DNA from: an uncultured Thermoplasmatales archaeon
Lineage (GTDB): Archaea; Thermoplasmatota; E2; DHVEG-1
Length of the DNA stretch: 17,367 bases
Reading direction: 5' to 3'
Assembly: GCA_964646685.1 (NCBI GenBank)
Contig: CAZYFW010000016.1
Span: forward strand, 1 to 17,367
Position numbers and translations under genes: made by a program. The notes beneath the pieces were generated by a model. It saw only the letters and a program-made list of their open reading frames with translations. It was not told the DNA's origin and did no database searches. Numbering within the stretch: position 1 is the first letter of the stretch; every line of letters begins with the position of its first letter. Shown here piece by piece: positions 3,034-17,367 of this stretch.

Positions 3034-3102
3034 ACCAAAACGTATAACAACTTATAACCTATATATGCTTCGAAAGAACCGGACTATTGGAGGATATTGT
3101 TA

Positions 3103-3441
3103 ATGATGCCTGGTCGTATGAATCCAAAACAAATGAGTCAAATGATGAAGAGATTTGGCATTAATGTAAAAGAGATAGAAAACGTCGAAAAAGTCATTAT
3201 TCAGACTGATACCAAAGAATATGTGTTTGAAAATGCGGAAGTTACGATCATGGATGCCCAAGGACAAAAAACCTATCAGATTTCTGGAAAGCCACGCATT
3301 GTTGAACGAGAGGAAGAGATTCCACAATCAGATATTGATTTGGTTGTAGAACAAACCGGTAAAACGGCCGCTGAGGCAAAAAAGGCATTAGAAGAGACAA
3401 AAGGAGATATTGCTCAGGCAATCCTAAAACTCAGTGAGTAA
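3103..3441 (+). CDS. nac: nascent polypeptide-associated complex protein (archaeal NAC alpha, NAC + UBA domains)
   Basis: MMPGRMNPKQMSQMMKRFGI start and the NAC beta-barrel region are typical of archaeal NAC. The C-terminal UBA-like segment is TGKTAAEAKKALEETKGDIAQAILKL. GGAGGA at 3089..3094 lies 8 nt before ATG 3103; the ORF track opens at TTG 3097. Confidence 0.9.
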   Translation: MMPGRMNPKQMSQMMKRFGINVKEIENVEKVIIQTDTKEYVFENAEVTIMDAQGQKTYQISGKPRIVEREEEIPQSDIDLVVEQTGKTAAEAKKALEETKGDIAQAILKLSE

Positions 3442-3699: not shown

Positions 3700-4917
3700 A
3701 TGAATATTCTTAGGCGAAGTATAAAAACATCCATATTTTCGTTAGTTGTGTTAATTGCAATTATGATGATGTTTTTTTTGGATTGTTCTTGTGTTGCAAC
3801 TTCTGATACAGATATTGCTTCAAATGAAAGCACTAGTCTAGATGATGTAGCAAAAAATTTGTCAACTTTTACTAATACAACCCAACGATTGTATCCTACA
3901 AATGATATTACAATAATCACTCCTGATGGGAGTACAATGACAGATCTTTCCACCACCTCTGTAAATGTTCAAGTGAACGATAAAACCAGAATAATATATT
4001 TTTCGAATACTACAGATGCTTTTTCAAATATCGACTTCCGTAAGTCTATAGATGGTTTAGACGACTTCAACTTATATATTGATTTTACTAATTATGATGC
4101 TGCGTCAGATCTCGATTTGATTATTGCAAACTATACCATCGATTGGGGAAATGGTGATATTTCTACTGGTAGGAATGTCCCTATATCAACGTTATCTTAT
4201 ACATACAAAAAAGAGGGAAAATATCCTGTGACTGTAAGATTGACTGATACTGATGGGATAACCTATGCCTTTCTAAATAATCAAAGTTTTAAGCTTACTA
4301 CCGGACAATTTGTAACACTTTGGGTGGATGAAAATAAGGAAACGGTCGCAATCAGTTCTGCTGCTGGAGCAGGCGGAGTTGCCATCCTTGGTTTTGCACT
4401 TACAGAAGCTGGAAAGTACAAACTATTGACTCTTCTCCCTTTGCTTATCCCGCTCTACACTCGTATTCAAAAGGAAGATGTACTTGACCAATTTGTCCGT
4501 GGGGAGATATATGGCTACATAAAAGCAAATCCAGGTGTACATTATAATCAGATTATTCGAGAACTTGATGTAAAAAACGGTACATTATCTTACCACCTCC
4601 ACATGTTGGAGAAGACGGGCATGGTCAAATCGAGGAAGGAAGGATTAAGATATCGAGTATTTTACCCAACTGGAATAAAGTTCCCGAAGGAAGAGAGATA
4701 TCGATTAACTGAACTCCAGATGAGTATTATCAAGATGATAAAGGAAAATGAAGGAATTAGTCAGAAAGAGATCGCTCGAGCTTTAAATGTGAAACATCAG
4801 ACAGTAAGCTATAATATGAAGGTGCTGCAACAAGCTGGTTTCATCCGTCTACGAAAAAAGGGGAGAACAACTAGTTGCTATATCATTGAAGATGGATATA
4901 GCGATCAGGCCGTTTAA
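3700..4917 (+). CDS. membrane-anchored transcriptional regulator: signal/anchor, extracytoplasmic PKD-like domain, TM helix, two cytoplasmic winged-helix HTH domains
   Basis: N-terminal hydrophobic anchor (IFSLVVLIAIMMMFFL). PKD signature (IDWGNGDIS...LSYTYKKEGKYPVTVRLTDTDG). Central TM (VAISSAAGAGGVAILGFAL). Two ArsR/MarR-like wHTH units (YGYIKANPGVHYNQIIRELDVKNGTLSYHLHMLEKTGMVKSRKEG; IIKMIKENEGISQKEIARALNVKHQTVSYNMKVLQQAGFIRLRKKG). Ends TAA then TGA. Confidence 0.75.
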   Translation: MNILRRSIKTSIFSLVVLIAIMMMFFLDCSCVATSDTDIASNESTSLDDVAKNLSTFTNTTQRLYPTNDITIITPDGSTMTDLSTTSVNVQVNDKTRIIYFSNTTDAFSNIDFRKSIDGLDDFNLYIDFTNYDAASDLDLIIANYTIDWGNGDISTGRNVPISTLSYTYKKEGKYPVTVRLTDTDGITYAFLNNQSFKLTTGQFVTLWVDENKETVAISSAAGAGGVAILGFALTEAGKYKLLTLLPLLIPLYTRIQKEDVLDQFVRGEIYGYIKANPGVHYNQIIRELDVKNGTLSYHLHMLEKTGMVKSRKEGLRYRVFYPTGIKFPKEERYRLTELQMSIIKMIKENEGISQKEIARALNVKHQTVSYNMKVLQQAGFIRLRKKGRTTSCYIIEDGYSDQAV

Positions 4918-5880: not shown

Positions 5881-7149
5881 ATGAATAAACTAAAAACACT
5901 AGCAATACTACTCGCACTGGTCATTGTTTTCACCGGTGTCTACGCAGGTGCCAACTATAGCGGACTAACAAACCATGACCTAATTAAGGCTCAATCGACC
6001 CATAAGTTAAGTAATTGTTCCATCGCAGGATCAATATGCGAACTGTCATTTGAGCTTTATAAAGGACTGTTAAAAAATGGTGATGAAAACATTTTCTTTT
6101 CGCCCTATAGTATTTTCATAGCTCTTGCAATGACTTATGAAGGTGCAAGTGGGCAAACAGCTGAAGAAATGATGGAAGTATTAAATATTCCACAAAATAA
6201 TGAAACTGTTTTAGAATCGGTAAAGACGCTTCATGGTTATCTAAATAAGAACGATAAATTTACAATAAGTACAGCTAATGCTCTTTGGATAAGAGATAAT
6301 CTTGATCTCTTAATTAATTATTCAAACATCATTCAGGAATATTACGGAGGTCATGCTTCCAAAATCGATGTTTCTAAACCTGAAGAAACCGCACAGATGA
6401 TAAATGACTGGGTAGAGGAACAAACAAAGGGAAAAATTACTGACTAAATTAAAAAAGAAGATATCATTGGTTTAACTGCATTAATTCTTACTAATGCCAT
6501 TTACTTCAAAGCCGACTGGAAAGTTCAATTTAATCCAGATGAGACAAAGGAACAAGAGTTTGAATTGGAAAGTGGTGAGAAAATCATGGTTCCTACAATG
6601 TGTCTTGAAGGTTCTGAAGAATTGTTTTATTACACGGAAAATGAGGAATTACAGATACTTGAATTGCCTTATGCAGGTGAAGAGCTTTCTATGCTTGTTT
6701 TGCTTCCGAAGCAAAAAAGTATTGCAGAAATTGTAGAATCATTATCATTTGGGTCTTTGTCAGAGTTGAAAGAATCAATGTATGAGACAAACATTAACAT
6801 TCGCCTTCCTAAGTTTAAACTTGAAACAGAATATGAATTAAACGAACCATTGAAGCGGATGGGCATGCCAAGTGCGTTTACCCGATATGATTTCACTGGT
6901 ATGTGTTATTGGTCTGGCAATCCAGATGCAATAGATCCCCTTAAAATTGATAAAGTGATTCATAAAGCGTTTATCGAGGTAAATGAGGAAGGAACAGAAG
7001 CTGCTGCTGCAACAGCTGTAATCATGGTTGACTATTGTATGCATAGTTCTTCGGAGTTTTTTGCTGATCATCCATTCCTGTTTATAATTCAGCATATAGA
7101 AACAGGTACCGTTCTTTTCATGGGAAGCGTCGGTAACCCCTTATCTTAA
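5881..7149 (+). pseudogene. serpin (serine protease inhibitor) interrupted by a single in-frame TAA at 6445..6447
   Basis: ORFs 5881..6447 and 6565..7149 are in the same frame. The 117 nt between them are open and encode conserved serpin sequence ([24 protein letters not shown]). Other serpin hallmarks: FFSPYSIFIALAMTYEGASGQT, hinge/[26 protein letters not shown]-terminal hydrophobic anchor MNKLKTLAILLALVIVFTGVYAGA. Read through, it would be about 421 aa. Confidence 0.85.
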
Positions 7150-8454: not shown

Positions 8455-8529
8455 TGCTCCCGACGGGATTCGAACCCGTGTAGCTAGCTCGAAAGGCTAG
8501 AATGATTGGCCGGACTACACCACGGGAGC
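8455..8529 (-). tRNA. tRNA-Glu (anticodon UUC)
   Basis: Reverse complement folds as GCTCCCG/CGGGAGC acceptor, anticodon arm CTAGC-CTTTCGA-GCTAG, T arm ACGGG-TTCGAAT-CCCGT, discriminator A. No encoded CCA. Confidence 0.9.
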
Positions 8530-8538
8530 AATTTTTAG

Positions 8539-8609
8539 CAGCCCTGAGCGGATTCGAACCGCTGACGCTAGCTCCAAAGGCTAGAATGTTGCCACTACAC
8601 CACAGGGCT
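8539..8609 (-). tRNA. tRNA-Gln (anticodon UUG), A1-U72, discriminator G73
   Basis: Reverse complement: AGCCCTG TG GTGT-AGTGGCA-ACAT T CTAGC-CTTTGGA-GCTAG CGTC AGCGG-TTCGAAT-CCGCT CAGGGCT G. Lies 9 nt upstream of tRNA-Glu on the same strand. Confidence 0.9.
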
Positions 8610-8720
8610 ATTTACTATAGTATGGCGCAGTGGATTGTAATTTTGATATTTATTATTTTGGTTATCTCAAAATGAGAAATCGATTAATACGCTTTCGCCG
8701 CTATAAATTGGATAAATTAG

Positions 8721-8792
8721 TAGCCCCGAGTGGATTCGAACCACTGTCGCTAACTCTAAGGTCAACATGATTGTCCACTACAATACGGGGCT
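8721..8792 (-). tRNA. aberrant Gln-type tRNA-like gene (6-nt anticodon loop CUUAGA; possible pseudogene or non-canonical decoder)
   Basis: Reverse complement: AGCCCCG TA TTGT-AGTGGACAA-TCAT G TTGAC-CTTAGA-GTTAG CGAC AGTGG-TTCGAAT-CCACT CGGGGCT A. The acceptor stem and positions 8-9 are identical to tRNA-Gln(CUG). The T arm is perfect. The loop between the best 5-bp anticodon stem (8750..8754 / 8761..8765) has only 6 nt (8755..8760). Confidence 0.55.
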
Positions 8793-8847
8793 ATTGTTAT
8801 ATTTACGTTTAATGGTGATAAATTGGTTATTTAATTGACCAATCAAA

Positions 8848-10536
8848 TTATTTCTTGTTTTGTTGCATCTGCTGAACTTTTGCCCAAGTGTCACGTAATA
8901 CTACAGTTCTGTTGATAATGAGATTCTTCTCAGTCTTATCTGGATCTATGCAGAAATATCCTTGTCGTTCGAACTGGAATCTATCAAATGGTTTTAATTT
9001 ACCAACAGTAGGTTCAACCTTGCATGATTTTAATATCCCGAGCGAATCAGGATTAAGAAAATCCTTAAAATCGGCATTTTTTTGCCCGGCAGGATTTTTT
9101 ACAGTAAATAATCTATCATAAAGTCTAATTTCTGCATCGATTGAATGAGCCGCTGAAACCCAATGAAGTGTTGATTTTACTTTCCGCCCATCAGCGGCAG
9201 TGCCTCCACTGGTTGCAGGATCAATTGTACATCTAAGCTCAACTACTTTGCCATTATTTTTAACTGCTTTTTGGCAGGTTACTAAATAAGCATACCTGAA
9301 TCTTACTTCTTGACCAGGTGTCAAACGATAGAATTTCTTTGGGGGATCCTCCATAAAATCCTCTTGTTCAATAAATAATACTTTTGAAAATGGAATTTTT
9401 CGAGTTCCAGCCTTTGGATCTTCAGGATTATTTATCGCCTCCATCTCTTCGACTTCATCTTCGGGATAATTTTCAATTACTACTCTAAGTGGATTAAGAA
9501 CGCCCATGAACCGTGGACAAGTTTTATTTAAATCATCTCTGACACAATGTTCAAGGAACTCAAAGTCAACCATGCTGTTTACTTTTGCAACACCAATTCG
9601 CTTGCAGAAATTTCTGATAGAATCAGGCGAGTAACCTCGTCTATGCATTCCACTGATAGTTGGTAATCTAGGATCATTCCATCCATTTACATATTTGCCT
9701 TCTACCAATTCTAAAAGCATACGTTTGCTCATTATTGTATATGTTAGATTCAGACGAGCGAATTCTATCTGTTGTGGATGATAGACCTCAATAGCATCAA
9801 GGAACCAATCATAGAGAGGGCGATGGTTCTCAAATTCAAGAGTACATATTGAATGAGTAATTCTTTCGATGGAGTCTTCCAGACCGTGTGCCCAGTCGTA
9901 CATGGGATAAATACACCATTTATCTCCGGTATTATGATGGGGGGCATGTAATACTCTATACAATACTGGATCACGCATATTGAGATTCGGATGGCTCATG
10001 TCAATCTTGGCCCGAAGTACCTTCCCACCGTCAACAAACTCACCTGCTTTCATCCGCTCAAAAAGATCGAGGTTTTCTTTCACCGAACGATCACGATAAG
10101 GGCTATTTTTGCCGGGTTTTGTTAGAGTGCCGCGTTGCTCGCTTATTTCTTTAGCACTTAAGTCATCGACATATGCTTTACCGGCTTTTATTAACTGAAC
10201 TGCATATTCGTACATCTGATCAAAATAATCTGAGGCAAAATAAAGCCGGTCTCCCCAGTCAAATCCGAGCCATTTTACATCTTCAATAATTGATTTGACA
10301 TATTCTTTCTCTTCTTTTGCAGGATTGGTATCGTCAAAACGAAGGTTACATAGGCCCTTGTATTCTTCAGCTATGCCAAAGTTGAGACATATGGACTTAG
10401 CATGACCGATATGTAAGTACCCATTTGGCTCGGGTGGAAATCTTGTGTGGACGCGACCATCATATTTATTTGTCTTCAAGTCCTCATCAATTATGTCTCG
10501 AATAAAATCCCTTTTTTCATCAATAGCTGAATCCAT
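8848..10536 (-). CDS. glnS: glutaminyl-tRNA synthetase, bacterial type
   Basis: Collinear by eye with E. coli GlnS: [36 protein letters not shown] (HIGH), [68 protein letters not shown] (KMSKS equivalent), LRDTWAKV C-terminus. 562 aa with no eukaryote-type N-terminal extension. Confidence 0.95.
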
Positions 10537-10573
10537 ATTGCCTCACCACATATATGTTTAAGAGATTTAAAGA

Positions 10574-10645
10574 CAGCCCCGCCCGGATTTGAACCGGGGC
10601 CTAGAGATCCAGAGTCTCTTATGTTAACCACTACACTACGGGGCT
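10574..10645 (-). tRNA. tRNA-Gln (anticodon CUG), A1-U72, discriminator G73
   Basis: Reverse complement: AGCCCCG TA GTGT-AGTGGTTA-ACAT A AGAGA-CTCTGGA-TCTCT AGGC CCCGG-TTCAAAT-CCGGG CGGGGCT G. Its 3' end lies 37 nt upstream of the glnS start codon on the same strand. Confidence 0.9.
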
Positions 10646-10721
10646 AAGGATATTATTTGTTGCAGATGATTAGAAATTCCCTATATAACCTTTAACATCA
10701 AATAAGTAAATCCTTTAAATA

Positions 10722-12029: not shown

Positions 12030-12123
12030 GGAATTTTGCTTGCAAAGTTATTCTTTTCGTAACGTTTATCTATAGAAATTTTCATTCAGGTTCCAACGAC
12101 ATTGATTGGGACGGAGGCTTTCT

Positions 12124-13374
12124 TTGGATCCTACTTTGATATTGATCGGTGGCAGTACTGTTGCTATAGCTTTCTATGTTGCATGGAGTATTGGTGCTAA
12201 TGATGTAGCAAATTCTATGGGTACCTCGGTAGGTAGCAAAGCCATCTCTATTAGACAAGCTATTTTGATTGCCGGTATTTTTGAATTCGCTGGAGCTGTA
12301 TTGATAGGCGTTCACGTTACAAAAACAATTCAAAATGGAATCGTGGATCCAGTGTTATTTTCAGCTGATCCATCTATTTACGTTTACGGGATGCTTGCTG
12401 CGTTACTCGCTGCTGCTGTTTGGATTTCGATTTCGACATATTTTGCACTACCAATATCAACATCCCAATCTATAGTTGGAGCATTAATTGGTTTCGGTGT
12501 TGTTGCAGCGGGCATTTCAGCAGTGAGCTGGGGAAAAATAATTCAGATAGGGGAAAGCTGGATTTTATCCCCTCTTGCTGGCGCAGCACTTGCATTTTTC
12601 ATTTTCTTAGTTATAAAAAAAGTTATCTTTGATACAAGCAAACCCTTTGAATCTACTAAAAAAGCAATTCCGTTTTTCACTTTTGCTCTTGTTTCTGTTA
12701 TTTTATTTTCTATTTTTAAAAGTCTTGAATGCACAGATTTTCCCACTATTTGTTTTTCAACAGCTTTGGAGATAACACTAGTCGTTAGTATTATTTCTGC
12801 TGTTCTTAGTCATGTGCTTGTAAATCGTTATAAACCTGGTAAGCTGGAGACTGATCAAGAAGTTTACCGTTCTATCGAGCATGTTTTTATTTATCTTCAG
12901 ATAATGACTGCTTGTTTTGTTGCCTTTGCCCATGGTTCGAATGATGTAGCAAACGCTATTGGTCCTTTAGCTGCTGTTATAAACATTCTCGAATCTGGTT
13001 CTATTGAATCAGTAATTGGAGTTCCTCTATGGTTGGTTGTTCTTGGCGGTGTGGGTATCGTTGTTGGTCTTGCAACATGGGGGTATAAAGTCATTGGTAC
13101 CATTGGTAAAAAAATCACAGAGATCACCCCAACAAGGGGTTTTTCTGCAGAGTTTAGTACGGCACTAGTTGTTTTAGTATGTTCTCGTCTTGGTTTGCCC
13201 GTATCTACATCGCAGGTACTCGTAGGCTCTGTAATTGGTATCGGGTTTGCAAAAGGTATCGTTGCTGTAGATTTAAAAATAATAAAGAGAATCATGGCAT
13301 GTTGGATAATAACTGTTCCAGTTTCTGCTGCTACATCAGCAATAATCTTTATTTGTTTAAGAGCGTTATTATAA
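12124..13374 (+). CDS. inorganic phosphate transporter, PiT family (copy A)
   Basis: Both PiT half-repeat signatures are present (WSIGANDVANSMGTSVGS; FAHGSNDVANAIGPLA), with many TM segments. The ORF track opens at TTG 12106. GGAGG at 12113..12117 lies 6 nt before TTG 12124, and from there the N-terminus (M)DPTLIL matches the copy B start MDPITFL. Confidence 0.9.
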   Translation: MDPTLILIGGSTVAIAFYVAWSIGANDVANSMGTSVGSKAISIRQAILIAGIFEFAGAVLIGVHVTKTIQNGIVDPVLFSADPSIYVYGMLAALLAAAVWISISTYFALPISTSQSIVGALIGFGVVAAGISAVSWGKIIQIGESWILSPLAGAALAFFIFLVIKKVIFDTSKPFESTKKAIPFFTFALVSVILFSIFKSLECTDFPTICFSTALEITLVVSIISAVLSHVLVNRYKPGKLETDQEVYRSIEHVFIYLQIMTACFVAFAHGSNDVANAIGPLAAVINILESGSIESVIGVPLWLVVLGGVGIVVGLATWGYKVIGTIGKKITEITPTRGFSAEFSTALVVLVCSRLGLPVSTSQVLVGSVIGIGFAKGIVAVDLKIIKRIMACWIITVPVSAATSAIIFICLRALL

Positions 13375-13392: not shown

Positions 13393-14091
13393 ATGGACAA
13401 AGAAAAAGATCATTTCAGAGCGCCTGTTGCTGATACATTCAGAAGAAAATCACCATTTGACCAATTACTTGAACACATGGGGAAAGTCAGAGAATGTATC
13501 GATATTTTAGGAAGCGGGTTGGTTGATTATTATAAAGGAAATTACAAAAATTTTTCAGATTTGGCTAAGAAAGTATCTGAAATTGAACATGAAGCAGATC
13601 TTATTAAAAGTAATCTTAGAAACCATCTTCCAAATTCACTTTTTATGCCTGTTGATAAGGGAAAATTTATGTGGGCTCTCAGAGAACAAGATGCAATTCT
13701 TGATCATGCAGAAAATCTTGCAACAATGCTTGATATGAGGCATACAAAAATTCCAAAAGAACTACAGAAAGTTTTCATTGAACATTGTAAACTAGTTATG
13801 AAGACAGTAAAGGCCATGGAGGATGCAGTTGAAAACATTAGAGATTTAGTTGAAACAAGTTTTGTAAAACGAGAACGAGAACAAACAAAGCAGTTTATCT
13901 ATAAAGTTCATGAGTTCGAATGGAAAGCAGATAAAGCGAAATATGAAGCGACTAAAGGAATCTATAAATTTGAAAAGAAGCTAGATCCAATGGACGTATA
14001 TCATCTCCTTAAGATTGCAGATTGGGTTGATGACATCGCAGATCATGCAGAAAATGTGGCCGATTGGCTTAGAGCCATGATTGCAAAATAG
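13393..14091 (+). CDS. DUF47 / PhoU-like Pit accessory protein (TIGR00153 family), copy 1
   Basis: Helical PhoU-related pattern (EIEHEADLIKSNLRNHL, FMPVDKGKFMWALREQDAILDHAEN, IADWVDDIADHAEN). The canonical position immediately 3' of a PiT gene is a well-known pairing. ATG 13393 is preferred over the ORF-track GTG 13381. Confidence 0.85.
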   Translation: MDKEKDHFRAPVADTFRRKSPFDQLLEHMGKVRECIDILGSGLVDYYKGNYKNFSDLAKKVSEIEHEADLIKSNLRNHLPNSLFMPVDKGKFMWALREQDAILDHAENLATMLDMRHTKIPKELQKVFIEHCKLVMKTVKAMEDAVENIRDLVETSFVKREREQTKQFIYKVHEFEWKADKAKYEATKGIYKFEKKLDPMDVYHLLKIADWVDDIADHAENVADWLRAMIAK

Positions 14092-14238
14092 TTATTATTT
14101 ATTATCCGTGCCAACTAAATGATTGATAACATTTTCTGATATGTCCGCAGAATATTCTCCTATTCTTCTTATACTCTCTACGACATAACCTAGTGAAATC
14201 ACAAATTCACCTTTTTGTTTAAAGGCAAGCTTATTTAT
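13400..14238 (+). repeat. copy 1 of a perfect direct repeat of at least 839 bp (offset 3129 bp)
   Basis: Compared by eye with 16529..17367, with no mismatch found. The ORF-track proteins are identical from EKDHFRAP to MIAK. The nested ORFs 13523..13738 and 16652..16867 are identical. The 147 nt after the stop codon are identical up to the window edge. Confidence 0.9.
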
Positions 14239-15120
14239 TTCTTTACATTTTATTTCTAGTTTTTGAACCGATTCTATTGTTTCATTTGCTAATTTCACAT
14301 CCTTTCTTAGAAACGATGTAATACTTTTGTTAAAAATATCCAGAGATAAATTGCTTGCAAATTCAAGTTTTTCAATTATTATGCCATCAAATTTTTTATC
14401 TGTTATATTTATTGCATTTTTTGCAATTCTTATTACATGGTCGCCTATACGTTCTATGATCCTACTTACTAGAAAGGATGTCGTTGCCAATTCAATCGTT
14501 ATTCCCATCTTCTCAGCAAAGCTTACGTTTTGTAAAATTATGTTATGTTGTCGTGCAACCAACCAATGAAGCCTATCTATTTCATTGTCTCTTGAAAGTA
14601 CGTCTTCTGCTAGCATTTTATCATTTCTTTGTATGGCGTTCATTATATCTTCATTCATGCCTTTAACGATGATATGCATTCTTTTAATCGTCCTGTCAAA
14701 TGGCATCTCTGTAGGATTTAGTATATCTTTAGTTATAATATGAGTATCAGTCTCTTCGACAATCTCTTGCCCTATTGTCGTTTTAGTGAACTTTCTAACA
14801 GTCATTTTAACTGCTGGCGACATTCTAGTTGCTGATTTCACCTTTATAGAATCATATCCAGATATATAGGCGCCAATCAAATGCCTTAATAGAAAATCCT
14901 GGTTAGTAATATTACTTGCATCGAATTCTTTTATTCTCTGCGTGGTTTCTCTGTCGATTTTTGGAGTTATTAAAAGTGTCCCATCTGATTGCATTAAAAG
15001 TCCAACCGGATCGTTTTTTTGAATTTTTAAAGATTTTATCCATTCTTTAGGCAATGTTACAATATATGACGACCCGCCAGTCATTTGTACGCGTCTTATT
15101 TCCATTTTTCCGCCGTTCAT
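14095..15120 (-). CDS. phoU: phosphate uptake regulator, archaeal type (N-terminal SpoVT/AbrB DNA-binding domain + tandem PhoU domains)
   Basis: AbrB-like swapped-hairpin segment IRRVQMTGGSSYIVTLPKEWIKSLKIQKNDPVGLLMQSDGTLLITP. PhoU repeats with DNEIDRLHWLVARQ, IERIGDHVIRIAKN and IRRIGEYSADISENV. Convergent with the DUF47 gene (3-nt gap). The start may be ATG 15120 or ATG 15105 (MEIRRV). Confidence 0.85.
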   Translation of the reverse strand: MNGGKMEIRRVQMTGGSSYIVTLPKEWIKSLKIQKNDPVGLLMQSDGTLLITPKIDRETTQRIKEFDASNITNQDFLLRHLIGAYISGYDSIKVKSATRMSPAVKMTVRKFTKTTIGQEIVEETDTHIITKDILNPTEMPFDRTIKRMHIIVKGMNEDIMNAIQRNDKMLAEDVLSRDNEIDRLHWLVARQHNIILQNVSFAEKMGITIELATTSFLVSRIIERIGDHVIRIAKNAINITDKKFDGIIIEKLEFASNLSLDIFNKSITSFLRKDVKLANETIESVQKLEIKCKEINKLAFKQKGEFVISLGYVVESIRRIGEYSADISENVINHLVGTDNK

Positions 15121-15262: not shown

Positions 15263-16510
15263 ATGGATCCGATTACTTTTCTTTTAATAGCAGGTGGAGC
15301 AAGTGCTATCGCCTTTTACATGGCATGGAGCATTGGTGCAAATGATGTTGCAAACTCAATGGCAACGGCAGTCGGTGCAAAGGCAATTACTTTTAAACAA
15401 GCTGTAATAATAGCAGGAATTCTAAATCTCGTTGGTGCCGTTTTTGTTGGCGGCCATGTAACGGATACTGTTAGAAAAGGAATTGTAAGCACTACAGGTA
15501 TTGATAATCATGCTTTATTACTAGGATTTGTTGCTAGTCTTCTCGCAGCTGCAATTTGGGTCACTCTTGCAACATGGAAGGAAATGCCAGTGTCTACTAC
15601 TCATTCGATAATTGGAGCTTTAATGGGCTTTGGACTTATTGCTGGTGGAACATCCACTGTCATATGGAGTAAGGTTGGTTCTGTAGTTGCTAGCTGGCTT
15701 CTTTCCCCATTGATAGGTTGCATTCTTGCATTTTTTGTTTTCAAAATTATTGTAAAAACTATATTTTCTAAAGATAACCCTGTTGCTGCCGCTAAGATTG
15801 TTGGGCCAATGATTTTTGGTTTTACAGCATTTTTAATTGCATCATCGCTATTTTTAAAAACTCCGTTGAGTGAAAACTACGGTTTTACAGATTCTGACGG
15901 TCTTATTATTGCGACGTTTGTAGCTATAATTGTTGCATTAATTGGGATGTTTTTACTGAGAAAAGTAGAAGCAAAATCTGATGAAGATAATGCTGCATAT
16001 GGTGCTGTTGAAGGAATTTTTAGGAGACTACAGATTGGAACGTCGTGTTATGTTGCATTTGCGCATGGGGCAAATGATGTAGCAAATGCAATCGGCCCTG
16101 TTGCCTCAATAATCCCACTTGCACAAGGTATCGGGCTAGGTTCAGAAGTTGAAGTTCCTGTCTGGCTTTTAGCACTTGGTGGCGTTGGTATAGCTGTTGG
16201 ATGCATGACTTGGGGCCGTCGCGTTATGCGGACAGTTGGCAGCCGTATAACAAATCTCACAAACACAAGGGGTTTTAGCGTTGATTTCGGAGCTGCGACA
16301 ACTGTTCTTATTGCTTCAAAGCTTGGCATGCCTATATCTACTTCGCACACTGTAGTTGGTGCAGTAATCGGTGTAGGTCTTGCAAGAGGTCTTGAAGCTG
16401 TTAATTTAAACGTCATCAAGAAAATTATCGTTTCTTGGTTGCTGACTCTACCTGTTGCAGCAGGAACGAGTATAACAATATTTTTAATACTTAGAGGGTT
16501 ATTTGGATAA
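15263..16510 (+). CDS. inorganic phosphate transporter, PiT family (copy B)
   Basis: WSIGANDVANSMATAVGA and FAHGANDVANAIGPVA signatures. 415 aa, ends in TAA. Clearly a diverged paralogue of copy A, with many amino-acid and synonymous differences. Confidence 0.9.
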   Translation: MDPITFLLIAGGASAIAFYMAWSIGANDVANSMATAVGAKAITFKQAVIIAGILNLVGAVFVGGHVTDTVRKGIVSTTGIDNHALLLGFVASLLAAAIWVTLATWKEMPVSTTHSIIGALMGFGLIAGGTSTVIWSKVGSVVASWLLSPLIGCILAFFVFKIIVKTIFSKDNPVAAAKIVGPMIFGFTAFLIASSLFLKTPLSENYGFTDSDGLIIATFVAIIVALIGMFLLRKVEAKSDEDNAAYGAVEGIFRRLQIGTSCYVAFAHGANDVANAIGPVASIIPLAQGIGLGSEVEVPVWLLALGGVGIAVGCMTWGRRVMRTVGSRITNLTNTRGFSVDFGAATTVLIASKLGMPISTSHTVVGAVIGVGLARGLEAVNLNVIKKIIVSWLLTLPVAAGTSITIFLILRGLFG

Positions 16511-16524
16511 GGAGGTAAATGTTT

Positions 16525-17220
16525 ATGGAAGAAAAAGATCATTTCAGAGCGCCTGTTGCTGATACATTCAGAAGAAAATCACCATTTGACCAATTACTTG
16601 AACACATGGGGAAAGTCAGAGAATGTATCGATATTTTAGGAAGCGGGTTGGTTGATTATTATAAAGGAAATTACAAAAATTTTTCAGATTTGGCTAAGAA
16701 AGTATCTGAAATTGAACATGAAGCAGATCTTATTAAAAGTAATCTTAGAAACCATCTTCCAAATTCACTTTTTATGCCTGTTGATAAGGGAAAATTTATG
16801 TGGGCTCTCAGAGAACAAGATGCAATTCTTGATCATGCAGAAAATCTTGCAACAATGCTTGATATGAGGCATACAAAAATTCCAAAAGAACTACAGAAAG
16901 TTTTCATTGAACATTGTAAACTAGTTATGAAGACAGTAAAGGCCATGGAGGATGCAGTTGAAAACATTAGAGATTTAGTTGAAACAAGTTTTGTAAAACG
17001 AGAACGAGAACAAACAAAGCAGTTTATCTATAAAGTTCATGAGTTCGAATGGAAAGCAGATAAAGCGAAATATGAAGCGACTAAAGGAATCTATAAATTT
17101 GAAAAGAAGCTAGATCCAATGGACGTATATCATCTCCTTAAGATTGCAGATTGGGTTGATGACATCGCAGATCATGCAGAAAATGTGGCCGATTGGCTTA
17201 GAGCCATGATTGCAAAATAG
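16525..17220 (+). CDS. DUF47 / PhoU-like Pit accessory protein, copy 2 (identical to copy 1 after the first few codons)
   Basis: Same protein as 13393..14091 from EKDHF onward. GGAGGT at 16511..16516 lies 8 nt before ATG 16525; the ORF track opens at ATG 16519, only 2 nt after the SD. Confidence 0.85.
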   Translation: MEEKDHFRAPVADTFRRKSPFDQLLEHMGKVRECIDILGSGLVDYYKGNYKNFSDLAKKVSEIEHEADLIKSNLRNHLPNSLFMPVDKGKFMWALREQDAILDHAENLATMLDMRHTKIPKELQKVFIEHCKLVMKTVKAMEDAVENIRDLVETSFVKREREQTKQFIYKVHEFEWKADKAKYEATKGIYKFEKKLDPMDVYHLLKIADWVDDIADHAENVADWLRAMIAK

Positions 17221-17367
17221 TTATTATTTATTATCCGTGCCAACTAAATGATTGATAACATTTTCTGATATGTCCGCAGAATATTCTCCTATTCTTCTTA
17301 TACTCTCTACGACATAACCTAGTGAAATCACAAATTCACCTTTTTGTTTAAAGGCAAGCTTATTTAT
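16529..17367 (+). repeat. copy 2 of the perfect direct repeat (truncated by the window end)
   Basis: See copy 1. Identity runs to the last base of the window, so the true length is unknown. Confidence 0.9.
17224..17367 (-). CDS. phoU: 3' end (last 47 codons + stop) of a second AbrB-PhoU-type regulator gene, partial at window edge
   Basis: 17224..17367 is base-for-base identical to 14095..14238, the 3' end of the phoU-like gene. It would encode ...FKQKGEFVISLGYVVESIRRIGEYSADISENVINHLVGTDNK. Confidence 0.7.
   Translation of the reverse strand: MNKLAFKQKGEFVISLGYVVESIRRIGEYSADISENVINHLVGTDNK

Follow-up and report, generated by a model that had tools for sequence, protein, structure and literature searches.

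A 17,367-nucleotide contig of an uncultured Thermoplasmatales archaeon (CAZYFW010000016.1, assembly GCA_964646685.1; hereafter the window) carries glnS, the gene of a glutaminyl-tRNA synthetase (GlnRS) of the bacterial type, embedded in a cluster of archaeal tRNA genes in which the main tRNA-Gln species bear the bacterial discriminator base G73. The explanation that accounts best for this arrangement, to which we assign a probability of about 0.8, is that an ancestor of an uncultured lineage of sediment Thermoplasmata acquired a bacterial GlnRS once, and that glnS was inherited vertically afterwards within a conserved archaeal unit. This unit would comprise a BRE/TATA box (B recognition element and TATA box), tRNA-Gln(CUG), glnS led by a Shine-Dalgarno sequence and an A73 copy of tRNA-Gln(UUG), behind which come another promoter-like block, tRNA-Gln(UUG) and tRNA-Glu. 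Both G73/G10 tRNA-Gln species are most probably charged directly with glutamine by the enzyme, a reaction that would provide an archaeon with a direct route to Gln-tRNA(Gln). Adaptation would have occurred mainly on the tRNA side, through the replacement of A73 by G73, the enzyme showing three clade-specific fixed substitutions, and the third tRNA of the cluster is the ortholog of the A73 tRNA-Gln(UUG), which lost one base of its anticodon loop in the subclade of the window.

According to reviews published from 2010 to 2022, no archaeon possesses GlnRS, or "almost all" archaea lack it (PMC2978374, PMC9499178, PMC8007984, PMC8762117), and an earlier note on this DNA had likewise stated that characterised archaea are devoid of the enzyme, in agreement with three of these reviews (PMC2978374, PMC9499178, PMC8007984). 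Archaea obtain the same product, Gln-tRNA(Gln), by an indirect pathway combining a glutamyl-tRNA synthetase (GluRS) of the non-discriminating kind with the amidotransferase GatDE (PMC2330236, PMC2978374, PMC9499178). Archaeal tRNA-Gln displays A1-U72 and A73, and bacterial tRNA-Gln displays G73 (PMC9499178); these differences have been proposed as the reason why GlnRS never entered the archaea (PMC9499178, PMC2978374), the peculiar archaeal tRNA-Gln being held to block the transfer of the enzyme (PMC2978374, PMC9499178, PMC8007984, PMC8762117). GlnRS has also been annotated in metagenome-assembled genomes (MAGs) of the Heimdallarchaeia, uncultured archaea as well (bioRxiv 10.1101/2024.07.04.601786), which contradicts the statement that there is no archaeal GlnRS. 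Those genes, however, belong to another phylum (Asgard), lie beside cox genes and are mentioned in passing, neither their origin nor the tRNAs being analysed. The literature searched, including that on MGII/Poseidoniales, Thermoprofundales/MBG-D, Methanomassiliicoccales and the genome accessions, contains no account of a GlnRS in Thermoplasmata. What is already known is the presence of the gene in public annotations, where it stands unremarked and slightly misnamed. What is new is the occurrence of a bacterial-type GlnRS in an unexpected host lineage, contradicting the reviews up to 2022, together with a dimorphism of the tRNA discriminator and a constrained, loop-damaged tRNA. The window belongs to a widespread lineage of sediment archaea with a bacterial GlnRS fixed and nearly unchanged beside tRNA-Gln genes of bacterial discriminator. 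The barrier hypothesis thereby becomes testable on natural substrates, namely one enzyme with the G73 and A73 paralogs of a single locus and a damaged copy, and the sister lineages offer a natural series on the keeping or losing of GatDE and non-discriminating GluRS after the arrival of GlnRS.

The GlnRS of the window and its origin

The protein encoded by glnS matches the glnS equivalog TIGR00440 with 743.2 bits (cut-off 425.8) over profile positions 1-524 of 524, contains the Pfam domains PF00749 (tRNA-synt_1c), PF03950 (tRNA-synt_1c_C) and PF20974 (tRNA-synt_1c_C2), and aligns end to end with the GlnRS of Escherichia coli (residues 8-552, 57% identity over 550 aligned residues). Among structures of the PDB, bacterial GlnRS score from 614 to 726 bits, with Pseudomonas aeruginosa at 726 (PDB code 5BNZ) and E. 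coli at 707 (PDB codes 1GTR/1QTQ), against 489 for the human and 415 for the yeast enzyme; an archaeal GluRS reaches 172 bits, and both archaeal GluRS models remain below their cut-offs (TIGR00463, 354 versus 402; NF003169, 300 versus 516). The length and the domain order are those of the bacterial enzymes, with which the window protein has in common the catalytic Rossmann fold and two β-barrel anticodon-binding domains. The earlier note had described a bacterial-type, full-length GlnRS that follows E. coli GlnS and lacks the eukaryotic N-terminal extension, a description borne out by these scores and by the alignment with E. coli, which starts at residue 8; the protein has no N-terminal extension, and 41 residues precede the HIGH motif.

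All functional residues are in place. The class I motifs occupy residues 42-45 (HIGH) and 269-272 (MSKR), HIGH and MSK being kept in 120/120 archaeal sequences. In E. coli numbering, S269 and K270 are invariant in 120 archaeal and 75 bacterial sequences, and position 268 is a methionine in 120/120 archaeal sequences and variable among the 75 bacterial ones. The equivalents of the glutamine-pocket residues R30, D66, Y211, C229 and Q255 are kept in the window protein and in 120/120 archaeal sequences, as are, in the same 120/120, those of the anticodon-reading residues R341, R402, R410, R412, Q517 and R520; the equivalent of L136, the residue which unpairs position 1 from position 72, is kept in 117/120. 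The window GlnRS looks fully functional and almost unmodified, and the archaeal enzyme itself is ordinary, a standard bacterial-type GlnRS which differs from that of E. coli by its archaeal host and by an asparagine instead of an aspartate at position 235. Only three positions (V319, F327 and L514) are both fixed in the archaeal sequences and rare in the bacterial ones; an adaptation on the enzyme side was considered and rejected, since none of the three lies in a known acceptor-binding element.

The top-scoring NCBIfam model, NF011291 (873 bits), corresponds to the Deinococcus-type GlnRS/YqeY fusion (PDB code 2HZ7; PMC1865053), and PGAP uses the name of this fusion for archaeal proteins. The match, however, covers only profile positions 11-565 of 769 and the protein ends at residue 562, with no YqeY/GatB-like C-terminal domain, which places the window GlnRS outside the fusion subfamily; its score with 2HZ7, 529 bits, is below the 707 bits of the E. 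coli enzyme. Three archaeal GlnRS from NCBI (P0026, P0079 and P0119) are named "glutamine--tRNA ligase/YqeY domain fusion protein" by PGAP, yet they possess no YqeY domain.

The origin of the gene was approached with a neighbour-joining tree of 120 sequences of the archaeal lineage, 75 bacterial sequences and E. coli GlnRS, in which all archaeal sequences group as one clan in 100/100 bootstraps. Its nearest sampled neighbours, L016, L013, L002, L003, L005 and L006 (loci of the comparison being designated by L numbers), stem from MAGs labelled Planctomycetota (the first four), Hydrogenedentota and Sumerlaeota. Identity inside the clan is at least 76.5%, compared with a maximum of 74.6% to any sampled bacterial sequence. 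Among the matches listed, the bacterial relatives of the window GlnRS share 62-72% identity and are spread over many phyla. These results fit a single, old transfer of a bacterial GlnRS into the archaeal lineage, followed by vertical descent, and the horizontal acquisition suggested in the earlier note gains support from the position of the archaeal sequences as one clan beside the bacterial ones; the donor phylum would presumably be among those of the nearest neighbours. A transfer of the tRNA-glnS linkage along with the gene was considered and rejected, because a tRNA-Gln lies near glnS in only 5/60 bacterial loci and is there of the U1-A72 type, sometimes with an encoded CCA; from this it follows that the enzyme did not bring the archaeal tRNAs with it. 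The five bacterial tRNA-Gln(CUG) genes, from Anaerolineae, a "Deltaproteobacteria" MAG and Bacteroidales, occur within ~3 kb of glnS, four of them within ~100-700 nt.

The glnS unit, its tRNA genes and the route to Gln-tRNA(Gln)

Both ARAGORN and the Rfam model RF00005 recognise four tRNAs, all on the minus strand as glnS is (Table 1). The array of tRNA-Gln(CUG), glnS, a Gln-like tRNA, tRNA-Gln(UUG) and tRNA-Glu(UUC) on one strand, with spacers of 37, 55 and 9 nt, had been given in the earlier note and agrees exactly with the distances read from the sequence (10537-10573, 8793-8847 and 8530-8538, respectively). For comparison, 15 loci of the archaeal clade were taken from NCBI, ENA, JGI and Logan. 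The neighbourhood of glnS in the window is seen also in the closed genomes CP070798.1 (L001) and CP070724.1 (L083) and in the contigs L082, L084-L086 and L088-L097 (JGI, ENA and Logan). A tRNA-Gln(CUG) precedes glnS by 36-40 nt in the window and in L001, L082-L085, L088-L091, L094, L095 and L097, and the tandem in which tRNA-Glu(UUC) follows tRNA-Gln(UUG) at 9 nt in the window is encountered also in L082, L085, L086, L089, L092, L093, L095 and L097. Contig L088 (5704-5840) is nearly identical to L089 (5745-5817), but the 5' half of tRNA-Gln(UUG) is missing from it; the difference may lie in the strains or in the assemblies.

Table 1. Features of the glnS unit in the window and of comparable tRNA genes in other loci
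Feature	Position	Strand	Characteristics	Basis
tRNA-Glu(UUC)	8455..8529	-	G1-C72, A73	ARAGORN; Rfam 58.8 bits
tRNA-Gln(UUG), 'b' type	8539..8609	-	A1-U72, G10, G73	ARAGORN; Rfam 62.9 bits
Invariant 46-nt block	8616..8661	-	A/T-rich promoter-like box AAAATAATAAATAT, upstream of tRNA-Gln(UUG)	alignment
Aberrant tRNA derived from tRNA-Gln(UUG)	8721..8792	-	A73, U10, 6-nt anticodon loop CUUAGA	ARAGORN; Rfam
glnS	8848..10536	-	bacterial-type glutaminyl-tRNA synthetase, 562 aa	TIGR00440, NF011291, Pfam and PDB matches
Shine-Dalgarno-like sequence	10541..10547	-	GGTGAGG, 4 nt before the glnS ATG	sequence
tRNA-Gln(CUG)	10574..10645	-	A1-U72, G2-C71, C3-G70, G10, G73	ARAGORN; Rfam 67.5 bits
BRE/TATA-like box, putative promoter	10682..10693	-	AAAGGTTATATA, 36 nt upstream of tRNA-Gln(CUG)	sequence
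Intact UUG-'a'	L095 11742-11814; L093 3596-3670		acceptor stem AGCCCCG, weak D-stem, A73	Rfam (L095, 55.4 bits)
Bacterial tRNA-Gln(CUG) by glnS	L008 4743-4816; L015 7510-7583; L017 5351-5423; L049 4516-4590; L060 4733-4806			

In contrast to bacterial glnS genes, the window gene stands under an archaeal-type putative promoter and within a tRNA cluster. A box of the form AAAG[GA]TTA[TA]ATA is found at an equal distance in all the archaeal loci that reach far enough upstream (L001, L083, L084, L085, L088-L091 and L093), and its resemblance to the archaeal consensus suggests that the AAAGGTTATATA box acts as a promoter. In L093 (1700-1866) the box is kept upstream of glnS, and ~130 nt of unrelated sequence take the place of tRNA-Gln(CUG). 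No run of five or more T occurs between tRNA-Gln(CUG) and glnS, which makes their co-transcription plausible, and a common tRNA-Gln(CUG)-glnS transcript may well be formed. Most of the archaeal loci under comparison retain a purine run of the GGTGA/GAGG type before glnS, the exceptions, with a degraded run, being L001, L085 and L088/L089. A second putative promoter would reside in the 46-nt block upstream of tRNA-Gln(UUG), which shows no difference between the window, L082, L084 and L085, the rest of the spacer being variable; a related block exists in L088 and L089.

With respect to the discriminator base, G73 occurs together with G10 in every tRNA-Gln(CUG) of the archaeal loci compared, among which no A73 tRNA-Gln(CUG) was seen, and likewise in every UUG-'b', the copy beside tRNA-Glu, of the loci having this gene. 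Among tRNA-Gln, A73 is confined to another UUG paralog, UUG-'a', and to the aberrant tRNA of the window. The window tRNA-Gln exhibit A1-U72 (some relatives have G1.U72), C3-G70, G37 and A38, where E. coli tRNA-Gln has U1-A72, G3-C70, A37 and U38. G2-C71, G10, U35, G36 and G73 are common to the window tRNA-Gln and the E. coli identity set. The pair A1-U72, which is the one recognised by GatDE (PMC2330236), is kept in the tRNA-Gln of most of the lineages compared, and G1.U72, found in both tRNA-Gln genes of L090/L091, represents a departure from it. By their A1-U72, and by the A73 of one UUG paralog, these tRNAs resemble those of the indirect pathway, from which the locus differs in encoding a one-enzyme direct route and in the G73 of its main tRNA-Gln genes. 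The G73 of the archaeal tRNA-Gln would be an adaptation to GlnRS. Both tRNA-Gln genes of the window (8539-8609 and 10574-10645) also have G12-C23 in the D-stem, C12:G23 being given as the archaeal state (PMC9499178).

Several points weigh against the proposed acquisition and tRNA-side adaptation. Two Bacteroidales tRNA-Gln genes beside glnS (L049 and L060) have A73, the other three of the five having G73; G73 is therefore not a universal requirement of bacterial GlnRS, and the change of discriminator in the archaeal tRNA-Gln may not be an adaptation to the enzyme. Residue 235 provides no sign of adjustment either. In E. coli, D235 reads base pair 3-70 (G3-C70), and D235N is a mutant of relaxed specificity, with which the sequence of PDB entry 1QRS is consistent. 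The asparagine fixed at this position in the archaeal clade was considered as an adaptation to C3-G70 and rejected, since the Planctomycetota neighbours carry N235 too; it is therefore inherited. The tree was built by neighbour-joining only and leaves out eukaryotic, Asgard and deeper archaeal sequences, its bacterial sample is biased, having been picked by peptide patterns among the matches listed, and the archaeal clade, with at least 120 clusters, was sampled only down to ~80% identity to the window GlnRS. The neighbouring genes of the "Pirellulales" contig L002 are uninformative as to its bacterial labelling. Finally, the aminoacylation of the window tRNA-Gln by GlnRS is a prediction drawn from gene sequences.

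Granted that GlnRS was acquired and charges the G73 tRNA-Gln, the fate of the older route may be imagined in different ways. It is possible, at somewhat less than even odds, that the switch is complete, GatDE having been lost and GluRS having become discriminating, with GlnRS as the sole and essential route and the A73 copy as a dispensable relic. The fixation and high conservation of GlnRS throughout the clade with all functional residues intact, its tight linkage to its tRNAs under a conserved putative promoter, the G1.U72 of L090/L091, and the repeated loss of the A73 copy from the locus along with its damage in the window subclade, all point in this direction; the retention of A1-U72 in most lineages does not, and neither does the purifying selection to which the damaged A73 tRNA is still subject in its body, a plain relic not being expected to show it. 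In L001, L083, L095 and L096, the 10 kb on either side of glnS contain neither gatD nor gatE.

A slightly less probable alternative, which refines the proposed acquisition and does not contradict it, is that both routes coexist, GlnRS serving the G73 tRNA-Gln and the non-discriminating GluRS with GatDE serving the A73 UUG-'a', the window subclade being in the course of losing the indirect branch. L093 and L095/L097 do contain both discriminator classes next to each other, sublineages differ as to whether the A73 copy is intact, damaged or missing from the locus, and the GatDE determinant A1-U72 is kept in most lineages (PMC2330236). However, no locus of the comparison offers an A73 tRNA-Gln(CUG), L090/L091 display G1.U72, and GlnRS might simply charge both UUG classes as redundant isodecoders. 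That the constraints of the old pathway are relaxing is hinted at indirectly by the G1.U72 pair and by the different states in which the A73 paralog is found. A further, rather unlikely reading goes beyond these hints and regards the lineage as part-way through the replacement of the indirect by the direct route, the barrier having been crossed through the change from A73 to G73 in the tRNA instead of through the enzyme, and the damaged tRNA having taken on a new, non-decoding role. If true, the A73 paralog would mark the old route, being intact, damaged in its anticodon or deleted according to the sublineage, and the selection on the damaged copy would mean that an RNA of tRNA shape had gained a function other than decoding.

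The tRNA with a shortened anticodon loop

The third tRNA of the cluster, which the earlier note had called a Gln-like tRNA, can be identified more exactly as an ortholog of UUG-'a' with a lesion in the anticodon loop. It still scores 41.3 bits with RF00005, above the gathering score of 29, with one loop position deleted; ARAGORN assigns to it a 2-base anticodon, "(ta)", and the loop has six members instead of seven. An intact UUG-'a' occurs ~50 nt after glnS in L093 and in L095/L096/L097, where the GlnRS is 80-82% identical to that of the window, and the aberrant tRNA is the ortholog of this gene (L095, L093) both by position and by sequence. Copies of UUG-'a' are absent at the locus in L001, L083, L088/L089 and L090/L091.

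The 6-nt loop is common to the window, L082, L084, L085, L086 and L092, and an assembly error was rejected in view of its presence in these five other assemblies. They form the subclade of the window (the window, L082/L086/L092, L084 and L085), inside which GlnRS identity is ~90% or more. Among these four close species the loops read CUUAGA, CUUAGG, CUUAUA and CUUGGA, the last one, from L085, being equal to the Gln loop CUUUGGA with one U removed. The loss of one base of the anticodon loop means that this tRNA no longer decodes normally, and the idea that it suppresses, or reads one given codon, was rejected, because the loop triplet is different in every species.

The pattern of variation among the four species is uneven: 3/6 columns are variable in the anticodon loop, 1/66 in the rest of the tRNA, 31/166 in the flanking spacers and 230/563 at the third codon positions of glnS. 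The difference between body and spacers is significant (Fisher p = 2e-4), from which it follows that the body is still constrained. Its single change lies in a stem and converts U.G to C-G. The predicted folds are unusually stable (z -3.0 to -4.6), the minimum-free-energy fold being a rod of -26.6 kcal/mol as compared with -22.3 kcal/mol for the cloverleaf. A scan of metagenomes for further copies yielded only 2 matches, one of them already in the locus set.

On these grounds the aberrant tRNA is possibly a functional RNA rather than a decaying pseudogene, a view we hold tentatively and do not prefer to that of a decaying gene. It would be either a non-decoding tRNA active outside translation or a processing signal, whose tRNA shape marks the point where the glnS message has its 3' end and the downstream tRNA transcript its 5' end. 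Besides the contrast between the nearly invariant body and the variable loop, spacers and glnS third positions, the lone stem change from U.G to C-G, the tRNA score still above the Rfam gathering score and the stability of the folds speak for a function. Against it stand the close relationship of the four species, which leaves few independent changes, the preference for the rod over the cloverleaf, and the absence of the gene, unreplaced, in several sister lineages; moreover, this RNA is known here from its sequence alone.

Recurrence in the lineage and surroundings of the locus

The order CinA(-)/tRNA-Gln(CUG)/glnS/tRNA-Gln(UUG), often followed by tRNA-Glu, is seen in at least 12 independent assemblies, including the two closed Thermoplasmata genomes with a glnS locus, of 1.92 and 2.32 Mb. 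As in the window, RtcA, a metallophosphoesterase, Pit-DUF47, NAC and Nnr are encoded near glnS in the loci of relatives. The enzyme is widespread in this lineage: protein clusters that share 80-91% identity with the window GlnRS number at least 120, three of them labelled "Thermoplasmatales archaeon" or "Thermoplasmata archaeon" by NCBI and two coming from the closed genomes. The recognisable sample names of the clade loci point to sediment metagenomes (Baltic Sea; Guaymas Basin), for which reason an assignment to Marine Group II, considered at first, is not supported. The earlier note had foreseen that GlnRS might turn out to be common and vertically inherited in the lineage, at the expense of its novelty: it is indeed so (at least 120 clusters at 80% or more), and the window contig is not exceptional, GlnRS being already annotated by NCBI in MAGs of the lineage, but the annotation stands and the lineage itself is unusual.

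The surroundings of glnS in the window are archaeal. The markers announced in the earlier note, NAC and AbrB-PhoU, are detected by profiles at 3097-3441 (TIGR00264, 130 bits) and, as AbrB/MazE-PhoU, at 14095-15120, and both intact tRNA-Gln genes have A1-U72 as it had stated; a HVO_0163-type helix-turn-helix gene (3700-4917) and a SbcD_rel_arch-like phosphoesterase are present in addition. The GC content is even across the window, and the GC content at third codon positions (GC3) of glnS, 0.31, falls inside the range of its neighbours (0.24-0.35).

An artefact of assembly or binning, by which archaeal DNA would have been fused to a bacterial glnS fragment, or a bacterial contig given an archaeal label, could appeal to the 62-72% identity with many bacterial GlnRS and to the exact repeat of 839 nt at the contig end, a sign that the assembler met repeats elsewhere on the contig; it is refuted for practical purposes, since both glnS junctions recur in the independent assemblies and closed genomes mentioned above, the flanking tRNAs are archaeal (A1-U72, no encoded CCA) as opposed to the U1-A72 type of bacterial tRNA-Gln, both GC and GC3 are even throughout the region, and the repeat lies at least 2.8 kb away from the glnS region. 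The possibility of a chimeric contig, raised in the earlier note, is settled in the negative by the same synteny and uniform GC3.

Genes of tyrosine integrases abut the tRNA-Gln/tRNA-Glu cluster 3' of glnS in L085 (5373-6737), L090 (7776-9801) and L091 (4056-6081), with a resolvase also beside the cluster in L090/L091, which suggests that the cluster serves as an integration site for mobile elements. In the window, the 839-nt exact direct repeat (13400-14238 and 16529-17367) spans a DUF47/PhoU_div gene with its 3' flank and reaches the contig end. The Pit (PHO4) genes beside it (12106-13374 and 15263-16510) are far more diverged, with ~72% identity over an 88-nt stretch. It may have arisen by duplication or gene conversion in the very recent past, the 839-nt repeat, or else reflect a join made there by the assembler. 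A serpin gene is split into two open reading frames on the plus strand (5881-6447 and 6565-7149), matching positions 4-142 and 183-370 of the Pfam Serpin profile, the split reflecting either a disruption of the gene or an error of sequencing.

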